41,528 nucleotides of DNA, taken from Escherichia phage HK633. The DNA is taken from sequence record NC_019719.1; one strand, 5' to 3'. The notes beneath the pieces were generated by a model that worked only from the letters and a program-made list of their open reading frames with translations, did no database searches and was not told where the DNA came from. Positions 4,031 to 22,262 of the stretch are shown piece after piece. The first letter of the stretch is position 1, and every line of letters begins with the position of its first letter. A program made the translations under genes and the position numbers.

Positions 4031-5188
4031 ATGTCTGAACTCGCTCTCATTCAAAAAGCTATCGAAGAATCCCAGCAGAAAATGACCCAGCTTTTCGATG
4101 CGCAGAAAGCAGAAATCGAAAGCACAGGCCAGGTTTCCAAACAGTTGCAGTCCGACCTGATGAAAGTACAGGAAGAGCTGACCAAATCCGGCACTCGCCT
4201 CTTCGATCTGGAACAGAAACTGGCATCCGGCGCTGAGAATCCTGGTGAGAAGAAATCCTTCTCTGAACGGGCTGCTGAAGAGCTTATTAAGTCATGGGAC
4301 GGTAAACAGGGCACCTTTGGCGCTAAAACGTTTAACAAGTCACTAGGCAGTGACGCTGATTCGGCTGGCTCACTGATCCAGCCTATGCAGATCCCAGGCA
4401 TCATCATGCCAGGCCTGCGCCGTCTTACCATTCGTGATCTGCTGGCTCAGGGCCGCACTTCCAGTAACGCTCTGGAATATGTGCGTGAAGAGGTGTTTAC
4501 CAATAACGCCGACGTGGTGGCAGAGAAAGCACTGAAGCCAGAATCGGATATCACCTTCAGCAAACAAACCGCGAACGTGAAGACCATCGCGCACTGGGTG
4601 CAGGCATCACGTCAGGTGATGGATGATGCGCCAATGCTTCAGTCCTACATTAACAACCGCCTCATGTACGGCCTGGCACTGAAGGAAGAGGGCCAGCTGC
4701 TGAACGGCGACGGTACCGGGGATAACCTGGAAGGGCTGAACAAAGTGGCAACCGCCTATGACACCTCGCTGAATGCCACCGGCGACACCCGCGCTGACAT
4801 TATCGCTCACGCTATTTATCAGGTGACCGAGTCTGAGTTCAGCGCTTCCGGTATCGTCCTGAACCCGCGCGACTGGCACAACATCGCGTTGCTGAAAGAC
4901 AATGAAGGCCGCTATATCTTCGGTGGTCCTCAGGCATTCACCAGTAACATCATGTGGGGCTTGCCAGTGGTTCCGACTAAGGCGCAGGCCGCCGGCACCT
5001 TTACCGTAGGCGGTTTCGATATGGCCTCACAGGTCTGGGATCGCATGGATGCCACCGTGGAAGTTAGCCGTGAAGACCGCGATAACTTCGTGAAAAACAT
5101 GCTGACCATCCTGTGCGAAGAGCGTCTGGCGCTGGCGCATTATCGCCCGACAGCAATCATCAAGGGCACCTTCTCTTCTGGCTCATGA
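4031..5188 (+). CDS. Major capsid protein (HK97 gp5 type)
   Basis: 385 aa; counting residues gives Lys103 (delta-domain cleavage boundary), Lys169, Asn356 and Glu363 at the positions known for HK97 isopeptide crosslinking. Confidence 0.95.
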   Translation: MSELALIQKAIEESQQKMTQLFDAQKAEIESTGQVSKQLQSDLMKVQEELTKSGTRLFDLEQKLASGAENPGEKKSFSERAAEELIKSWDGKQGTFGAKTFNKSLGSDADSAGSLIQPMQIPGIIMPGLRRLTIRDLLAQGRTSSNALEYVREEVFTNNADVVAEKALKPESDITFSKQTANVKTIAHWVQASRQVMDDAPMLQSYINNRLMYGLALKEEGQLLNGDGTGDNLEGLNKVATAYDTSLNATGDTRADIIAHAIYQVTESEFSASGIVLNPRDWHNIALLKDNEGRYIFGGPQAFTSNIMWGLPVVPTKAQAAGTFTVGGFDMASQVWDRMDATVEVSREDRDNFVKNMLTILCEERLALAHYRPTAIIKGTFSSGS

Positions 5189-6735: not shown

Positions 6736-7440
6736 ATGTCTGCACTTTATGAAAAATCGCAGCTGACGAAGATCCTTATTTCCTCCCTGCCGTCCACCAA
6801 AGAAACGATGGATTCCGCCACCTTTCTCGATCTGAGTTGCACCATCAAAGAAATTCAGTTCACTGGTGGCCAGAAGCAGGATATCGACGTAACAACACTT
6901 TGCTCTACCGAGCAGGAGAACATCAACGGCCTGCCTTCTCCGTCAGAAATCTCTCTGTCCGGCAACTTCTACAATAATCCAGCGCAGGACGCCTTGCGTG
7001 ATGCGTATGACAACGACACCACTTACGGCTTCCAGATCATCTTCCCGTCAGGTAATGGTTTTAAGTTCCTGGCCGAAGTTCGCCAGCATACCTGGTCATC
7101 TGGTACCAATGGTGTTGTGGCAGCTACATTCTCACTGCGCCTTAAAGGCAAGCCTGTCCCGATTGACTCTGTACTTAAACTGACCACTGATCTTCCTTCC
7201 TCACTGTCTGTAGCGGTGGGGGCTGCGATCAGCATGGCTGTAGTAGCTGCCGGTGGTAAGCCTCCGTATGCCTACACCTGGAAGAAGGCAGGTAGCACCG
7301 TCAGCGGGCAGACATCCGATACCTTTAATAAAGCCACCGCAGTTTCAGGTGATGCAGGTGATTACACCTGTGTGGTTACGGATTCTTCTTCTCCGGTCAA
7401 AACGGTTACCTCAGCTGCCTGCACCCTTACTATCAGTTAA
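6736..7440 (+). CDS. Major tail protein with C-terminal Ig-like domain
   Basis: GGAG RBS; 234 aa; C-terminal ~80 aa resembles Big_2/Ig-like decoration domain as in lambda gpV. Confidence 0.8.
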   Translation: MSALYEKSQLTKILISSLPSTKETMDSATFLDLSCTIKEIQFTGGQKQDIDVTTLCSTEQENINGLPSPSEISLSGNFYNNPAQDALRDAYDNDTTYGFQIIFPSGNGFKFLAEVRQHTWSSGTNGVVAATFSLRLKGKPVPIDSVLKLTTDLPSSLSVAVGAAISMAVVAAGGKPPYAYTWKKAGSTVSGQTSDTFNKATAVSGDAGDYTCVVTDSSSPVKTVTSAACTLTIS

Positions 7441-17400: not shown

Positions 17401-18047
17401 TTAACGAGAAGGAGGCAACGGCGCGTTCTCTGCTGAGCCTGCAGACGGATGTCAACGGCAACAAGGCATCCATAAACAGCCTGAATCAGACGTTCTCCGA
17501 CTATCAGCAGGCTACGGCCACGCAGATAAACGGCATAACGGCGACGGTGAACGGGCATACCTCCGCCATCACCACTAACGCTCAGGCGATAGCCAACGTT
17601 AATGGCGACCTCAGCGCGATGTACAACATCAAGGTTGGCGTTTCCAGCAACGGTCAGTATTACGCCGCGGGGATGGGTATCGGCGTGGAGAATACGCCAT
17701 CCGGCATGCAGTCGCAGGTTATCTTCCTGGCTGATCGCTTCGCCGTCACCACGGCAGCCGGTAACAGCGTGGCTTTGCCGTTTGTGATCCAGAATGGACA
17801 GACATTCATCCGGGCCAGTTTCATCCAGGACGGCACTATCAGCAACGCAAAGATTGGTAATTTTATCCAGTCGAACAATTATGTTGCTGGTTCTGCTGGC
17901 TGGAAGCTTGATAAAGGGGGGACGTTTGAGAACTACGGTTCGACTGCTGGTGAGGGAGCCATGAAACTGACAAATCAGACGATCAGCGTCAAAGATGGCA
18001 GTAATGTTCTTAGGGTGCAGGTTGGCCGATTAACGGGAGTATTCTGA
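14496..18047 (+). CDS. J: Central tail fibre / host specificity protein J
   Basis: 1183 aa; N-terminus resembles lambda gpJ; fibronectin-III-like middle region; largest tail gene after I. Confidence 0.9.
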   Translation: MATATAIKGRKGGSSKTRTPTEQPDDLQSVAKAKILIALGEGEFSGQLTGKDIYLDGTALENADGSQNFSGVTWEFRAGTQAQKYIQGIPGTENEISVGTEVSSATAWTRTFTNTQLSAVRLRLKWPSLFKQEDDGDLVGYSVNYAIDLQTDGGTWQTVLNTSVTGKTTSGYERSHRIDLPQAGSTWTIRLRKITSDANSAKIGDTMMLQSFTEVIDAKLRYPNTALLYVEFDSSQFNGSIPQISCEPRGRVIRVPDTYDPETRTYSGTWTGAFKWAWTDNPAWIFYDLVVSDRFGLGHRLTAANIDKWTLYQVAQYCDQMVPDGKGGNGTEPRYTCNVYIQDRNDAYTVLRDFAAIFRGMTYWGGDQIVALADMPRDVDYSYTRANVVGGRFTYSSSTTKSRYTTALVSWSDPGNAYADAMEPVFEQALVARYGFNQLEMTAIGCTRQSEANRKGRWGILTNNKDRVVSFDVGLDGNIPQPGYIIAVADELLSGKVMGGRISAVNGRVIKLDRVADAAPGDRLILNLPSGASQSRTIQAVNGESVTVTTAYSETPQAEAVWVVESDELYAQQYRVVSVSDNNDGTFSITGAWHDPDKYARIDTGAIIDQRPVSVIPPGNQSPPANIVISSFSVVQQNISVETMRVSWDQAQNAIAYEAQWRRNDGNWVNVPRTSTTSFDVPGIYAGRYLVRVRAINAAEISSGWGYSEEKTLTGKVGNPPKPVGFIASENVVFGIELNWGFPANTDDTLKTEIQYSLTGTEDDAMLLADVPYPQRKYQQMGLKAGQIFWYRAQLVDRSGNESGYTGWVRGQASIDVSDITDVILEDIKGSETFKDLIENAVDSNEKIAGMADDIKQANDELELQAQEIAKNAQDIGQVQTSVNELSSTVGDVSSSLSDLEQTVATADTALGQRIDSISVSMDGMTGGVKNSAIAIIQNGLAQVATRKSLSASVAGNSAQLDRIDEVIVNEKEATARSLLSLQTDVNGNKASINSLNQTFSDYQQATATQINGITATVNGHTSAITTNAQAIANVNGDLSAMYNIKVGVSSNGQYYAAGMGIGVENTPSGMQSQVIFLADRFAVTTAAGNSVALPFVIQNGQTFIRASFIQDGTISNAKIGNFIQSNNYVAGSAGWKLDKGGTFENYGSTAGEGAMKLTNQTISVKDGSNVLRVQVGRLTGVF

Positions 18048-18048
18048 A

Positions 18049-18351
18049 ATGGCTTATGGAATACAGACCTGGGATGCTTCAGGAAAACCCAACAACTATG
18101 GCATCAAACCCGTTTCCGTCGTTGGGCGAATACAGCTGGCTGCCGGGCAAACCTCAGGCAGCTGGTCTTTTACGGTGCCCTCAGGAATGAAAGTTGGTTT
18201 TGTTCTTTCACTTGATGAAGGAGGTAACAGCGTAGGGCGGCGCATTGTCGCGTCAGGGAGCACAATAACCGTAAGCGCTGCATCTTCTGTAGGTCTGGGT
18301 AATTATCCGGCCTCAAAGTGTGAAGTGGTCGTTTTCATGGAGAAAGCATAA
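18049..18351 (+). CDS. Hypothetical protein, translationally coupled to J
   Basis: 100 aa; starts 2 nt after J stop; beta-rich composition. Confidence 0.55.
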   Translation: MAYGIQTWDASGKPNNYGIKPVSVVGRIQLAAGQTSGSWSFTVPSGMKVGFVLSLDEGGNSVGRRIVASGSTITVSAASSVGLGNYPASKCEVVVFMEKA

Positions 18352-18989
18352 TGGCCGAATTTGGCGCGATGATATTAATGGACAACGGGAACCCATTTGT
18401 AACGCCCCAGTCAACGCCTTTTTGTCTTTACGGCAAGTACACTTTCAACTCCTCTGCTAATGGCAGTTCGCAGCAGGTTGCTCAGAATATTGCATTAAAT
18501 GCTGACTACCCTGTGATGGTATTTATCAGGACCACAAATACCGCCCAGCCCACGCCAGTAATATCTTACCGGAACGGCGGAAATATATATGTCGCGGGGG
18601 TTAATCCCTATAACCAGAGCTTCACGTTAACCGCATATATTTTTGCCATATTTCCCCAGACGTTACCGAAATGGGGGATGGCCATCTGGGATTCGAGCGG
18701 GAAGCTGGTACTCACTAATGAGTCCCGCGTGCTGTCAGACTTGCAGACAATCGGAACGCCTGGAGCAAACGGCGGGATTAACATTGACCAGACGCTTGAT
18801 GGTTCATGGGCAGTGGCTCCATCAAGGCTGGGGCAAGTGAACAGAAACGACGCTTACTCATCTTGTAGGTATTCAGGCACAAGTACAAGAATAAACGCCG
18901 GTACAGCCGCAAATACACCTGGCGGTGCTGGAGGGGTGATAAATAATGGAATTATCCTGACAGCAATTAAAACAGACGCCTATGACTGA
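18351..18989 (+). CDS. Hypothetical protein (possible tail-associated)
   Basis: 212 aa; TAATG overlap with upstream ORF; Gly/Asn/Thr-rich. Confidence 0.55.
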   Translation: MAEFGAMILMDNGNPFVTPQSTPFCLYGKYTFNSSANGSSQQVAQNIALNADYPVMVFIRTTNTAQPTPVISYRNGGNIYVAGVNPYNQSFTLTAYIFAIFPQTLPKWGMAIWDSSGKLVLTNESRVLSDLQTIGTPGANGGINIDQTLDGSWAVAPSRLGQVNRNDAYSSCRYSGTSTRINAGTAANTPGGAGGVINNGIILTAIKTDAYD

Positions 18990-19096: not shown

Positions 19097-19330
19097 ATGA
19101 AAAGGCTAATTATCTGCATAGCGGGCGCTTTAATGCTGTCTGGTTGTGCTGGTGTACTTGAGAAACAGAAACCGATTTGCAGCGGCACGGCATATATGGG
19201 TGGCCATGAGAATACCGTTATGATTTACGCCGTTCGAAAGCAAAACAACCAGACGCAATACCGGGCCGGATATCCCTTTAACTGGCGCTGGGTAAGTGCG
19301 AACACATTCACAAGCACGACATGTAAATAA
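19097..19330 (+). CDS. Small lipoprotein moron (candidate Cor-type exclusion lipoprotein)
   Basis: 77 aa; signal peptide with lipobox LSGC; AT-rich upstream region 18990-19096; own terminator. Cor assignment is positional only. Confidence 0.65.
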   Translation: MKRLIICIAGALMLSGCAGVLEKQKPICSGTAYMGGHENTVMIYAVRKQNNQTQYRAGYPFNWRWVSANTFTSTTCK

Positions 19331-19350
19331 CTCATGATTTTCAATGCAAA

Positions 19351-19372
19351 CCTCGCCTCGGCGGGGTTTTTT
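19351..19372 (+). terminator. Intrinsic terminator (CCTCGC-CTCG-GCGGGG + T6)
   Basis: GC stem with one G-U pair followed by TTTTTT. Confidence 0.65.
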
Positions 19373-19388
19373 ATTGCCTGGAGAAAAT

Positions 19389-20660
19389 ATGCTTTATAAC
19401 ACTGGAACCATCGCCATTAACGGAAACAGCGCCACCGGCACGGGCACGAACTGGACGGCACCCGCCAGCCAGGTTCGCGCTGGCCAGACGATTATCGTGA
19501 TGTCTAACCCGGTGCAGCTGTTTCAGATTTCATCCGTGAACAGCGCCACGTCAATGACGGTTACTCCAGCTGCTTCCCCGGCGCTGAGCGGCCAGAAGTA
19601 CGGCATTCTTGTTACTGATAGTCTCTCGGTTGATGGCCTGGCGCAGAGCATGTCTCAGCTCATCAACGAGTATGACGAGAACATCGGCGCCTGGGAGACA
19701 TTTGCCACCACCTCAGCAAATCAGAACATCACCGTTACCATCAACGGCGCTCGTGTAACCATTCCGGCGATCGGCAAACTGGTCCAGAAAGGGAGCAATG
19801 GGGCGGTTGGAGTTTCGGACGGCGGGACCGGGGCAACGAATGCCGCTGACGCTCGCACAAACCTCGGTTTGGTTAAACAGACTTCTATTGATGACGGCAC
19901 ACCGGGTCGATTACTTACTACCGAGTATTCCTTCGGGCTAGGACCAGCGCCCAGATCAACATATCCAATGGGTCAGGGAACACAGTTTTTGATTTATGCA
20001 TCAACACCCAGCAACGGAGAGACTCCGGATTCTTCACTCGGTTGCGGCGTGCAGGTCGCATACGATTCTACAAGAAGGGCTCAATATTTCATAAAAACTA
20101 ATGGATATTTTTATAGTCGGTTTTCACTAACATCAGGAATTCTTGATGCATCCACTGCGTGGAATATGCACTATACAACCAAGAATACTACTAAATCTAG
20201 CGATGGAACCCTTAAGGCTGCGTCTCCGGTTGCCCGTATTGTAGCGAGCCAAGAAGCCTGCCAGCGCTCAGATATAACTGAGGATGGTTTCTCCTGGTGC
20301 GGCTGCGGTACGGCGAATGCAGAAGCTGAAGGTATCAGCATATCTCGTCTTGATGTAGGTGTTTATACGCTTACCGGTTCAGCAGGCCTGGCTTCTTCTG
20401 GCTGGCAACTCTTACCACCTATGGATCCTGGTGGTATGGGGGAGCTAGGTGTCGTTGAGGCAGAGCAAGCCGAAAGCGGCGACCTGACGATTCGCCTGTA
20501 TAAACGCAAATATATCCTAAGCGATGAAGGTGAGATCGTCAAAACCAAAGGTGAATTGATGGACGTGCCGGCGAACAGTTGGATCGATGTGCGTCTCGAT
20601 ATGCCTGAAAGCAGTGCCTGGAATCAGCGTCAGAAAGAGGCGGCTGAGCCTGCTTCGTAA
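19389..20660 (+). CDS. Tail fibre-like protein (putative receptor-binding)
   Basis: 423 aa from ATG 19389 (GGAG RBS); track start 19344 lies inside the terminator; Gly/Thr/Ser-rich, last structural gene before the attachment region. Confidence 0.55.
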   Translation: MLYNTGTIAINGNSATGTGTNWTAPASQVRAGQTIIVMSNPVQLFQISSVNSATSMTVTPAASPALSGQKYGILVTDSLSVDGLAQSMSQLINEYDENIGAWETFATTSANQNITVTINGARVTIPAIGKLVQKGSNGAVGVSDGGTGATNAADARTNLGLVKQTSIDDGTPGRLLTTEYSFGLGPAPRSTYPMGQGTQFLIYASTPSNGETPDSSLGCGVQVAYDSTRRAQYFIKTNGYFYSRFSLTSGILDASTAWNMHYTTKNTTKSSDGTLKAASPVARIVASQEACQRSDITEDGFSWCGCGTANAEAEGISISRLDVGVYTLTGSAGLASSGWQLLPPMDPGGMGELGVVEAEQAESGDLTIRLYKRKYILSDEGEIVKTKGELMDVPANSWIDVRLDMPESSAWNQRQKEAAEPAS

Positions 20661-20831
20661 AAGAAACCGCCGTCTGTCGTATGCAAGAACGGGCGGCGGC
20701 TGGCTGGCGAACTTACGATAGTGCGAGTATTGAATGATTTCCAGCCGTTACCGATTTTACTATGTTTTCAGTAGAACACTCAGACAAAACTGAGACACAC
20801 AAAGCTTTGTACTGGATTGCAAGACTTTGTG

Positions 20832-22013
20832 CTATCTGAGATATAGCAATGTTGGTTGCTCCACCTTTTCATCAACCCAATCCGCCCACCACTGCATCAT
20901 TTCTCTGCGCTTATCGAGATACTGAGCATGGTTGTAAATCCCACGCACAGATCCGCCGTTGGCATGTGCCAGTTGCACTTCAATAGCATCAGCAGGCCAT
21001 TCGTGCTCGTTCATAATCGTGCTGAATTCATGCCTGAATCCGTGACCGCTTTCCAGACCTTCATAGCCGATTTGTTTGATCACAAGCAATACCGCGTTCT
21101 CGCAGATTGGCTTCTTCTTATCGTTGCGCCCGGCAAAAACAAACTCTGATACTGGTTTAGTGATGGAGCTTAGCGTAGTGAGAAGTTCAACCACCTGGTC
21201 TGACATAGGAACAACATGAATCTTGCGTCCCTTCATCACACTGGCGTCGATAGTGATAATCCTGTTTTCAAAATCGACGTTCTTCCATTGCATGGAACGA
21301 AGCTCTTTCGTTCTTAGGGCTGTGTAGCGTAAAACTTTGGTCGCAATGAGCGATACGATGCTTCCTGAAAATGTTGCCAGTGCTTTGTTGAATGCCGGGA
21401 TCTGGTCTGCAGGAAGAAACGGGAAGTTCTTCTTGCGGTATCCCTTCATGGCGTCAGCAAGGTCAGGTGCCGGGTTATATTTAGCCCTTCCGGTGACAAT
21501 AGCGTAACGGAAAACCTCGCCGCATCTTCTGCGGGCTTTGTTGGCTCGCTCCATTGCACCGCGATCTTCAAATCTGCGGATTACTTCCAACAGTTGCATC
21601 GGCTCAATATCCTGAATCTCAAGACCGCCGATGATGGGTAAAATGTCGTCATCAAACATTTTTGCAAGTTCATTTGCATAGCCTACTGACCAGACTTGCT
21701 TCTTGTGCTCGTACCATTCCTTGTAAATGGCGCTAAAGGAATTGTTGTTAGACGAAGCCTTTTTCGCTTTTACCGGATCGATGCCAACCGAGATGTCTTT
21801 CCTCGCGGTCCATGCTTTATCCCTTGCCTCCTGCAAAGTCATAAGCGGATATTTTCCTACGGTCAGGATTTTCTCCTTACCGTCAATCTTGTAGCGAAGC
21901 TGCCATACCTTTTTCCCTGACACAGGGACAAAAAGGTACAGGCCATTACCATCGAGAAGGCGGTATGGTTTTTCTTTCGGCTTTGCTGCTTCTATCTGCT
22001 TAACGGTGAGCAT
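20832..22013 (-). CDS. int: Tyrosine integrase (P4-type)
   Basis: N-terminal AKPKEKPYRLLDGNGLYL arm-binding motif; C-terminal HxxR and RGIYNHAQY catalytic region; ATG 22013 preferred over the GTG at 22049. Confidence 0.85.
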   Translation of the reverse strand: MLTVKQIEAAKPKEKPYRLLDGNGLYLFVPVSGKKVWQLRYKIDGKEKILTVGKYPLMTLQEARDKAWTARKDISVGIDPVKAKKASSNNNSFSAIYKEWYEHKKQVWSVGYANELAKMFDDDILPIIGGLEIQDIEPMQLLEVIRRFEDRGAMERANKARRRCGEVFRYAIVTGRAKYNPAPDLADAMKGYRKKNFPFLPADQIPAFNKALATFSGSIVSLIATKVLRYTALRTKELRSMQWKNVDFENRIITIDASVMKGRKIHVVPMSDQVVELLTTLSSITKPVSEFVFAGRNDKKKPICENAVLLVIKQIGYEGLESGHGFRHEFSTIMNEHEWPADAIEVQLAHANGGSVRGIYNHAQYLDKRREMMQWWADWVDEKVEQPTLLYLR

Positions 22014-22262
22014 GGGTAAAAATCCGGTGGGTAAAATTATTTTATCCACTTTTTACCCGTCATGGAGTGCGGCTGTCAACGATCTGAAGCGAACTATTAC
22101 GAACGGTGAATCTACGGAAAGCTTGATATTCAGGGAATTTTGCGGACTGGTACGGATGGGGGCGAACTGATAAATGGTGTCCCCTGCAGACATCTACTTG
22201 AAGCAGCAGGGGATTGATTGGAATGGTGTTTTTTAGATGTGAGAAATATTTTACCCGCTATT

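Follow-up and report, generated by a model that had tools for sequence, protein, structure and literature searches.

Organization of the genes downstream of J

The window examined here is the DNA of Escherichia phage HK633 (NC_019719.1; 41,528 nucleotides, nt), the entire genome of a lambdoid phage that is mosaic and belongs to the HK022/HK106/mEp234 group. The present work concerns two open reading frames (ORFs), here designated ORF1 and ORF2, which occupy positions 18,049 to 18,989 of the window, immediately downstream of gene J, and their possible role in the recognition of the outer membrane receptor FhuA (Table 1). An earlier note on this DNA had described two ORFs of 100 and 212 amino acids (aa) just past the J stop and overlapping by TAATG, and these coordinates proved to be exact. 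Indeed, the J stop codon TGA (18045-18047) is followed by a single base, A (18048), and then by the ATG of ORF1 at 18049, while the stop codon TAA of ORF1 (18349-18351) and the ATG of ORF2 (18351-18353) have one A in common. Each of the two genes is preceded by a Shine-Dalgarno (SD) site embedded in the 3' end of the previous gene, and no promoter-like or terminator-like site was found between J and the end of ORF2.

Table 1. Features of the J-ORF1-ORF2 region and of its surroundings in the window (E, expectation value; SD, Shine-Dalgarno)
Feature	Position	Strand	Basis and remarks
YebO-like ORF, 74 aa	13560-13784		PF13974, E 1.8e-12; phrog_5031
J, central tail fibre / tip attachment protein, 1183 aa	14496..18047	+	Pfam FNIII-A_GpJ, Phage-tail_3, Phage_Tail_Tip
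Distal J domain, ~aa 1042-1183	17620..18047	+	co-inherited with ORF1 and ORF2, which are proposed to dock here
SD site GGGAG for ORF1, within the J 3' end	18035..18039	+	read from sequence; 9 nt ahead of ATG 18049
ORF1, 100 aa, phrog_557	18049..18351	+	profile match; proposed partner of the predicted receptor-binding protein, adaptor role proposed
SD site GGAG for ORF2, within the ORF1 3' end	18339..18342	+	read from sequence; 8 nt ahead of ATG 18351
ORF2, 212 aa, phrog_425	18351..18989	+	profile match; predicted FhuA-binding receptor-binding protein
cor, superinfection-exclusion lipoprotein inactivating FhuA	19097..19330	+	NCBIfam NF047972 lamb_exclu_cor, E 4e-41; phrog_1119; cognate exclusion gene of the module
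Intrinsic terminator-like hairpin and T-run after cor	19348..19375	+	9-bp stem, 5 GC pairs, then TTTTATT
Side tail fibre gene	19389..20660	+	phrog_1591, E 5e-137; Pfam Phage_tail_C_2
Tyrosine integrase	20832-22049	-	Arm-DNA-bind_3, Phage_int_M, Phage_integrase

A survey of 85 related loci, which were not de-duplicated, revealed that this organization is widely shared. The 1-nt overlap between ORF1 and ORF2 is present in 82 of them, a tight J-ORF1 junction (+1, +2 or -1 nt) in 81, and in 83 J was located adjoining the pair; moreover, in all the 28 more distant loci an ORF1-like gene lies directly ahead of an ORF2-like gene, with spacers from -4 to +5 nt. The order J, ORF1, ORF2, cor is also kept in T1, ES18 and phi80. 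The junction between J and ORF1 is of two types, that is, +1 or -1 nt in the temperate lambdoid phages (18045-18051 in the window) versus a gap of 44-45 nt with a hairpin and a T-run in the virulent phages T1 and Roth93, the latter infecting Klebsiella. In these two phages the spacer (4654-4698 of the T1 locus, L001, and 4143-4186 of the Roth93 locus, L004) consists of a GC hairpin followed by a T-run and is annotated as a terminator in T1. The two types of junction may represent different ways of setting the ratio of the predicted receptor-binding protein to J.

The idea of the earlier note that the two ORFs are co-expressed with the tail tip stood in part. The tight junctions and the lack of internal signals make it plausible that J, ORF1 and ORF2 form one transcription unit; however, since T1 and Roth93 have the hairpin-containing gap, the coupling that can be considered universal is that between ORF1 and ORF2, and not that between J and ORF1. 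Both genes are under strong purifying selection, the median pairwise ratio of nonsynonymous to synonymous substitution rates (dN/dS) over 66 unique loci being 0.078 for ORF1 and 0.044 for ORF2, to be compared with 0.074 for the J tip and 0.107 for Cor; they are real genes and not chance ORFs.

Families and distribution of the pair

The statement of the earlier note that no family could be assigned to the two ORFs does not hold. ORF1 (aa 1-99) matches positions 1-100 of the 100 of phrog_557 (E 2.4e-36) and ORF2 (aa 1-212) positions 1-224 of the 224 of phrog_425 (E 9.7e-75), so that both are full-length members of their families, and ORF2 is, in addition, a remote homologue of the family DUF6453 (see below). 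Searches of Pfam, NCBIfam and PDB sequences performed with the ORF1 and ORF2 of the window retrieved nothing significant, and the same was true when the PDB was searched with profiles. At the DNA level, the 941-bp stretch embedding the two genes does not differ from HK022 and mEp235 (100% identity), and its first 788 bases share ~95% identity with phi80. The counterparts of ORF1 and ORF2 are, respectively, PHI80_22 and PHI80_23 in phi80 ('similar to N15 gp22' and 'similar to N15 gp23'), gp22 and gp23 in N15, orf32 and orf31 in T1, gp30 and gp31 in ES18, and gp53 and gp54 in the Klebsiella webervirus Roth93.

Homologues of ORF1 were found in 344 phage records and those of ORF2 in 348, with an identical genus breakdown; the two genes are an obligate pair. 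Eight records entitled 'Campylobacter phage' (e.g., MG065679.1, A13a) contain homologues of ORF1, ORF2 and Cor typical of T1-like coliphages, and their host labels look like the result of contamination or mislabelling.

The distribution of the pair bears on the idea that ORF1 and ORF2 are morons or lysogenic-conversion genes with no function in the virion. This would be in line with the PHROG category of phrog_425 ('moron, auxiliary metabolic gene and host takeover') and with the position of the genes at the end of the tail operon, where lambda carries lom. However, they have no promoter of their own, they are translationally coupled to J, they always occur paired directly after it, and they are also present in strictly virulent phages (T1, dhillonviruses and weberviruses); we regard such a role as scarcely credible.

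As a phage receptor, FhuA (TonA) has belonged to the textbooks since the Luria-Delbrück era. The pair was found in known FhuA phages and is absent from the LptD-type phage Rtp and from the LamB-type phage lambda; its carriers include JLBYU37, JLBYU41, JLBYU60 and Teewinot, the dependence of which on FhuA is known from experiments (PMC10373560). A further paper (PMC13164509, citing Wietzorrek 2006) states that the cassette is harbored by HK022, T1, N15, ES18 and phi80, each of which uses FhuA, while close relatives not using FhuA are devoid of it. Similarly, within the KlebPhaCol collection gp53 and gp54 of Roth93 occur only in FhuA-sensitive weberviruses, both being absent from the FhuA-independent webervirus Roth44, and in the predicted complexes with FhuA the interface predicted template modelling score (ipTM) was 0.75 for gp54 versus 0.45 for gp53 (PMC12629751); we verified that gp54 of Roth93 is a homologue of ORF2.

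A different role was proposed in the KanT1 paper, where on the basis of the PHROG 'membrane' labels the two proteins were assigned to Cor-mediated exclusion (PMC13164509). According to this idea, ORF1 and ORF2 would be membrane proteins aiding Cor, the lipoprotein encoded downstream, in superinfection exclusion, and their genes do adjoin cor in the phages of E. coli. However, neither protein exhibits a signal peptide, a lipobox, a transmembrane or a hydrophobic segment, which is also true for the homologues from T1 and Roth93, and the 19-residue Kyte-Doolittle maxima are as low as 1.27 (ORF1) and 0.82 (ORF2) versus 2.09 for Cor, which possesses a lipoprotein signal with the lipobox LSGC. Moreover, the co-occurrence with Cor is not obligate, since the pair is present in 111 Klebsiella phage records, with a detectable Cor in only 2 of them, and Cor occurs alone in Stx phages; cor lies on the opposite strand in T1 and ES18. 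Lastly, there is the coupling of the pair to J, a late tail gene; in addition, one block of identity between the window and phi80 extends over the tip of J and into the pair, and ORF2 is homologous to a receptor-binding protein (RBP), as detailed below. An auxiliary function in exclusion thus appears very improbable, and the membrane and exclusion labels of ORF1 and ORF2 are contradicted by the data presented here, a result that is new to this work. The PHROG labels of phrog_557 and phrog_425 are now also found in RefSeq phage records, and at least one paper has already been led astray by them (PMC13164509).

As regards the weberviruses, which harbor the pair and almost never a recognizable Cor, either they have no FhuA-directed exclusion or an unrelated protein is used instead. 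The Roth93 locus (L004) contains no Cor-like gene; a 70-aa ORF without family match is located there at 6810-7022 (- strand).

Structure and conservation of ORF1 and ORF2

The AlphaFold2 models of the two proteins are all-beta, which bears out the prediction of the earlier note that both are beta-rich; its further remark that they are rich in Gly, Asn and Thr applies to ORF2 (G 10.4%, N 9.4%, T 9.4%) and not to ORF1, which is rich in Gly (14%), Ser (14%) and Val (13%), with N and T accounting for 4% and 5%. The ORF1 model consists of a 7-strand beta-sandwich (aa 22-99) and a disordered N-terminal arm (aa 1-21). The ORF2 model (predicted local distance difference test, pLDDT, 84; predicted template modelling score, pTM, 0.81) comprises two beta-sandwich domains (~aa 25-99 and 131-207), each with a lower-confidence arm ahead of it (aa 1-24 and aa 100-130).

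Concerning possible structural relatives, the best Foldseek match of ORF1 was the Sf6 tailspike, with 30-35% identity over ~78 columns, and it was a weak one (E 0.2; template modelling, TM, score 0.32). ORF1 also has a weak Pfam match to the Sf6-type Tailspike_C (PF21519; 15.8 bits versus a cut-off of 27 bits, E 0.015). In all, three weak pointers lead to this domain, a link that was not recovered by a profile search of the PDB. The PDB matches of the ORF2 model include the C-terminal domain of PCSK9, with a TM score of 0.27 that is not significant, whereas 17 matches at E <= 1e-3 were retrieved from a library of predicted viral structures (best TM scores 0.54-0.62), almost all of them being unnamed or uncharacterised phage proteins.

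The two proteins differ in their degree of conservation. The mean column identity is 78% for ORF1 versus 57% for ORF2, and ORF1 is 100% identical to gp22 of phi80, the corresponding value for ORF2 being 82%. Hardly any variation is seen, distant loci included, in the N-terminal arm of ORF1 (WGxQTWDAxGxPNNYG). In ORF2, aa 1-27 and 96-160 are conserved and aa 28-95 and 161-200 are variable; within the former, aa 13-24 are frozen, the nonsynonymous polymorphism (pN) being 0.001 versus a synonymous one (pS) of 0.49, while replacements and the drop of identity to phi80 cluster in aa ~150-200. An exhaustive profile search with ORF2 across 1.84 billion proteins yielded no more than 131 cluster representatives, and 18 distant relatives of at least 200 aa (e.g., P0394) match only ORF2 aa ~1-130 and possess a different C-terminal part. 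When the host genus changes, it is ORF2 that diverges most, since the identity to Roth93 is 60% for the J stub (the short C-terminal segment of J described below), 53% for ORF1 and 31% for ORF2. On the whole, ORF2 has the classic layout of an RBP, in which the attachment part is conserved and the head can be exchanged.

We also considered natural fusions as Rosetta-stone evidence, and this possibility was discarded. The candidates P0098, P0106, P0084, P0092 and P0303 proved to be chimeras created by deletions in prophages that have decayed, and P0378 is a repetitive protein that was matched spuriously. Bacterial in-frame deletion chimeras of this kind join a fragment of a minor tail protein or of J to the C-terminal half of ORF2 and are mislabelled 'phage tail protein' or 'TipJ family'.

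Relationship with the DUF6453 family

A profile built on diverse ORF2 sequences (52 sequences; effective number of sequences, Neff, 6.4) was aligned with the Rtp44 family DUF6453, and a hhalign probability of 92.1% was obtained (E 6.2e-7 over 78 columns), ORF2 aa 56-139 corresponding to aa 155-239 of Rtp44. Three of the 52 members of the ORF2 family match PF20051 directly (best E 9.4e-6), and many other members match a DUF6453 hidden Markov model in the same register when hmmsearch is used. ORF2 is thus a remote homologue of a solved LptD-type RBP family, a relationship that is new to this work. It is known that a member of DUF6453, the RBP of phage Oekolampad (RBP_Oeko), binds as a monomer to LptDE on its extracellular face and inserts deep into the barrel lumen, its tail-proximal part being disordered in the cryo-electron microscopy (cryo-EM) structure (bioRxiv 10.1101/2025.07.07.663478). 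The homology means that the FhuA-type and the LptD-type RBP families have a homologous core, and it strengthens the assignment of ORF2 as an RBP. The two families have been called unrelated in a 2026 preprint (bioRxiv 10.64898/2026.04.02.716166); our data suggest that these 'unrelated' modules share an origin.

The possibility that ORF1 corresponds to the N-terminal third of a split DUF6453 protein was rejected, since a diverse ORF1 profile gave an E value of 0.077, a probability of 0.7% and a non-collinear register. Likewise, no pairwise homology was found among the beta-sandwich bodies of ORF1 and ORF2, and only a motif of their arms is supported. Indeed, the arm of ORF1 and the internal arm of ORF2 have a motif of 11-13 residues in common (E 3e-5 to 8e-5). 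The short and nearly invariant pattern WG-x3-WD-x2-G is found at the N-terminus of ORF1, halfway along ORF2 and, in a looser form, at the start of ORF2; the two arms of ORF2 align in register, but with an E value of 0.37. The three arms bearing the motif are disordered in the monomer models. When six segments of ~100 residues (including the thirds of DUF6453) were compared, 12 of the 15 alignments fell on the diagonal, the figure from column shuffles being 3.2 +/- 1.7 and the z of the summed score ~6.7; this test is only suggestive, because the borders of the segments were drawn after the motifs had been seen.

One might speculate on these grounds that ORF1 and ORF2 build one heteromeric head, the three arms of which plug into the three identical C-terminal stubs of J and thereby resolve the symmetry mismatch between the trimeric J and the monomeric FhuA. 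We consider this quite unlikely. If it were true, the module would be akin to the single-chain DUF6453 RBPs, but distributed over two genes and made up of repeated units of an arm and a beta-sandwich, and ORF1 would be an integral part of the RBP rather than an 'accessory'.

The tip of J and the block shared with phi80

The alignment of the C-termini revealed that the J protein of the window ends 25 aa past PF09327 (Phage_Tail_Tip), and that ~130 additional C-terminal residues of lambda J are absent from it. In all the five phages carrying the pair that were compared, J terminates with a common stub, GEGAMKxTNxxISVxDGSxxLRVQxGRLTG[VS][FW]. The identity to the window protein was calculated for the last 45 aa of J and, in three segments, for the rest of it. 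Among the carriers of the pair, the last 45 aa are the best-conserved segment (58-100% identity), the values being 100% in phi80 (rest of J, 52-100%), 76% in T1 (23-48%), 58% in ES18 (22-37%) and 60% in Roth93 (21-57%). The corresponding figures are 31% in the LptD-type phage Rtp (rest of J, 21-51%) and 13% in lambda, whose J has a receptor domain of its own (21-35%). Upstream of its last 45 residues, the J protein of Rtp is as similar to that of the window as is the one of T1.

The comparison with phi80 disclosed a DNA block that is 98-100% identical and extends from ~17620 to ~18600, thus covering J from aa ~1042 to its end, the whole of ORF1 and aa 1-85 of ORF2. Outside this block J is ~52% identical to phi80 J at the protein level, and the DNA identity drops to 34-58% at 18802-18915, that is, at ORF2 aa ~151-188. 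The existence of this block, embedding the distal domain of J, ORF1 and the N-terminal half of ORF2, is a new finding of this work. That these three parts belong to a single block of identity supports the idea of a physical unit at the tip of J; taken by itself, the block does not say which of the components contacts FhuA.

These data might also be interpreted in a different way, i.e., the J stub itself might bind FhuA, and ORF1 and ORF2 might be non-structural, chaperone-like factors for the assembly or folding of the tip, absent from the mature virion. Indeed, FhuA phages show strong conservation of the last 45 aa of J, from which the LptD phage Rtp departs, J itself has been taken as the RBP of FhuA phages (PMC10373560), no evidence was found for ORF1 or ORF2 in virions, and in the record of ES18 it is gp33 that is marked 'present in virion', with nothing similar for gp30 or gp31. 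However, the stub amounts to just ~45 residues per chain and comes after a generic fibre repeat, and ORF2 is related to a protein experimentally shown to be an RBP and not to a chaperone (10.1101/2025.07.07.663478). In addition, ORF2 is laid out as an RBP, with conservation in its N-terminal part and a C-terminal head that can be swapped, and the published models favor a complex of FhuA with the homologue of ORF2 (PMC12629751). Binding of FhuA by the stub thus appears improbable to us, and the fibre-assembly role that the earlier note had offered as an alternative has gained no specific support.

A probable receptor-recognition module for FhuA

The earlier note had called the two genes uncharacterised, which is correct at the bench and not in the literature, where the locus is treated as an FhuA receptor-binding locus (PMC8594841; PMC12629751; bioRxiv 10.64898/2026.04.02.716166). 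According to the work on the BASEL collection, the 'bona fide RBP locus' of small siphoviruses consists of the genes directly 3' of gpJ and of a gene for a cognate exclusion lipoprotein, and its alleles match the terminal receptor, i.e., FhuA, BtuB, LptD or YncD (PMC8594841). The same locus was then confirmed on 101 siphoviruses, with AlphaFold3 models in support, in a 2026 preprint that identified CDS_0026 as the FhuA RBP and CDS_0024 as the GpJ of phage CPL00221 (bioRxiv 10.64898/2026.04.02.716166). The RBP being two CDS numbers past GpJ, it is the second gene after J, corresponding to the ORF2 family, and the ORF1 family is an unnamed accessory. The FhuA role of the locus is, therefore, already known as a prediction, and a disputed one; it is not a novelty of this work.

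On the basis of the whole body of data, we consider it probable that ORF1 and ORF2 constitute the predicted receptor-recognition module of a lambdoid phage of the HK022/phi80 type infecting via FhuA. Of the roles envisaged by the earlier note, that of a tip-associated host-range factor is the one favored by the evidence. According to the model that we propose, J would be a trimeric central fibre ending in a short conserved stub at the place that the LamB-binding domain occupies in lambda J. ORF2 would be a separate, terminal RBP, anchored on the phage through its N-terminal part (~aa 1-130) and contacting the extracellular face of FhuA with its variable C-terminal head (~aa 140-212). ORF1, made in step with ORF2 through the 1-nt stop/start overlap, would most likely link the J stub to ORF2 as an adaptor, or act as a stabiliser between the two, and Cor would block FhuA, so that infected or lysogenic cells are not re-adsorbed. 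The location of the two proteins in the virion, the binding of ORF2 to FhuA, the stoichiometry and the adaptor role of ORF1 are all inferred. We favor the latter role because conserved segments that are disordered in monomer models usually represent interfaces.

As far as ORF1 is concerned, a variant of this model must be taken into account, in which the contact with FhuA is again made by ORF2, whereas ORF1 serves as a dedicated chaperone, not as a structural adaptor, and departs once it has folded ORF2 or loaded it onto J. The small size of ORF1 (100 aa) and its coupling to ORF2 in 82 of the 85 loci would fit this role, as would the low score of its homologue in the model with FhuA (ipTM 0.45; PMC12629751) and the fact that the single-chain DUF6453 RBPs work without a homologue of ORF1. 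On the other hand, ORF1 is more conserved than ORF2 and belongs to the same phi80 block as the J stub (100% and 100%), and its near-invariant arm, disordered in the monomer and sharing a motif with ORF2, looks like a stable interface. We consider the chaperone role unlikely, though worth keeping in mind alongside the adaptor.

Some data weigh against a receptor-recognition module made up of ORF1 and ORF2. The role of ORF1 is drawn only from conservation, coupling and a short shared motif. Neither the ORF1 nor the ORF2 model had a significant neighbour in the PDB according to Foldseek, and the ORF1 and ORF2 of the window gave no match to PF20051 at E <= 0.1; ORF2 does not reach the threshold of any Pfam family, which counts against the assignment. 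Receptor-contact surfaces often show positive selection, and this is absent in both genes; it was not detected in any 12-codon window, the maximum pN/pS being 0.28 for ORF1 (aa 73-84) and 0.27 for ORF2 (aa 181-192). The conserved stub of J fits a direct contact between J and FhuA as well as it fits a docking site. As to published data, the cryo-EM analysis of T1 left the distal tip and the proteins of the pair unresolved (PMC11945409), no virion proteomics detecting the ORF1 and ORF2 proteins was found in the literature, and the published complexes with FhuA are AlphaFold predictions, which can misplace an RBP (bioRxiv 10.1101/2025.07.07.663478).

As to the protein by which T1, phi80, HK022 and N15 bind FhuA, the papers disagree, some naming J, some naming genes of the ORF1/ORF2 type and one proposing an exclusion role for the latter. 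The locus described here is the best candidate, and it lies in an easily manipulated lambdoid background, so that it is directly testable. The practical gain would be modest and threefold: database labels such as 'outer membrane', 'membrane associated' or 'moron' could be replaced by 'receptor-binding module', the use of the receptor could be predicted from the genome, and a defined cassette (J stub, ORF1, ORF2 and cor) would be available for the retargeting of siphophages.

Neighbouring genes

The terminator-like hairpin found after cor is a strong one and has an equivalent annotated in phi80. In the list of ORFs the side tail fibre gene spans 19344-20660 and overlaps this hairpin. The PHROG alignment starts at residue 15 of the longer ORF, the Pfam alignment likewise runs from 19389, and an SD sequence GGAG precedes the ATG at 19389, which is probably the actual start of the gene in place of 19344. 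The tyrosine integrase gene comes directly after the fibre gene, and the attachment site should lie in the ~170-bp gap between them (20661-20831). Upstream of J, the YebO-like ORF is inserted between the homologues of the tail-assembly genes K and I and is probably a moron.

Comparison with known systems

The closest systems are those of N15, phi80, T1, ES18 and Roth93, in which the same two families occur at full length, at the same site after J and with the same ORF1/ORF2 overlap, cor following downstream in the phages of E. coli. With respect to phi80, the ORF2 protein differs in length (224 aa versus 212 aa in the HK022 type) and in its C-terminal head; otherwise, the pair of the window is a plain member of the family.

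The LptD-type DUF6453 proteins (Rtp44 and the Oekolampad RBP, PDB 9rpt) resemble the module in that a separate RBP gene lies by a J with a short stub, with a cognate exclusion lipoprotein gene alongside, and the core is homologous. However, they are single chains of ~311 aa, encoded on the opposite strand in Rtp and targeting LptD instead of FhuA; they have no ORF1 partner and are longer by ~100 residues at the N-terminus, a part to which ORF1 shows no detectable homology (E 0.077). The structure 9rpt is not among the top 50 PDB fold matches of the ORF2 model.

The pb5 protein of T5 is ~640 aa long. The T5 system, comprising pb5 and Llp, uses the same receptor and includes a monomeric RBP bound non-covalently to the tip of the central fibre, as well as a small lipoprotein blocking FhuA (PMC9586334; PMC8594841). 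In contrast with the pair, pb5 is a single protein with no ORF1-like partner, its gene does not follow the fibre gene but lies upstream of those for the terminase, and no similarity to ORF1 or ORF2 was detected in either sequence or fold.

Lastly, the C-terminal domain of lambda J is a terminal receptor binder, specific for LamB, at the tip of a central fibre whose upstream parts are homologous to those of the window J. In lambda, however, the binder is represented by the covalently linked ~130 C-terminal residues of J, which are absent here, and separate genes are proposed to take their place.

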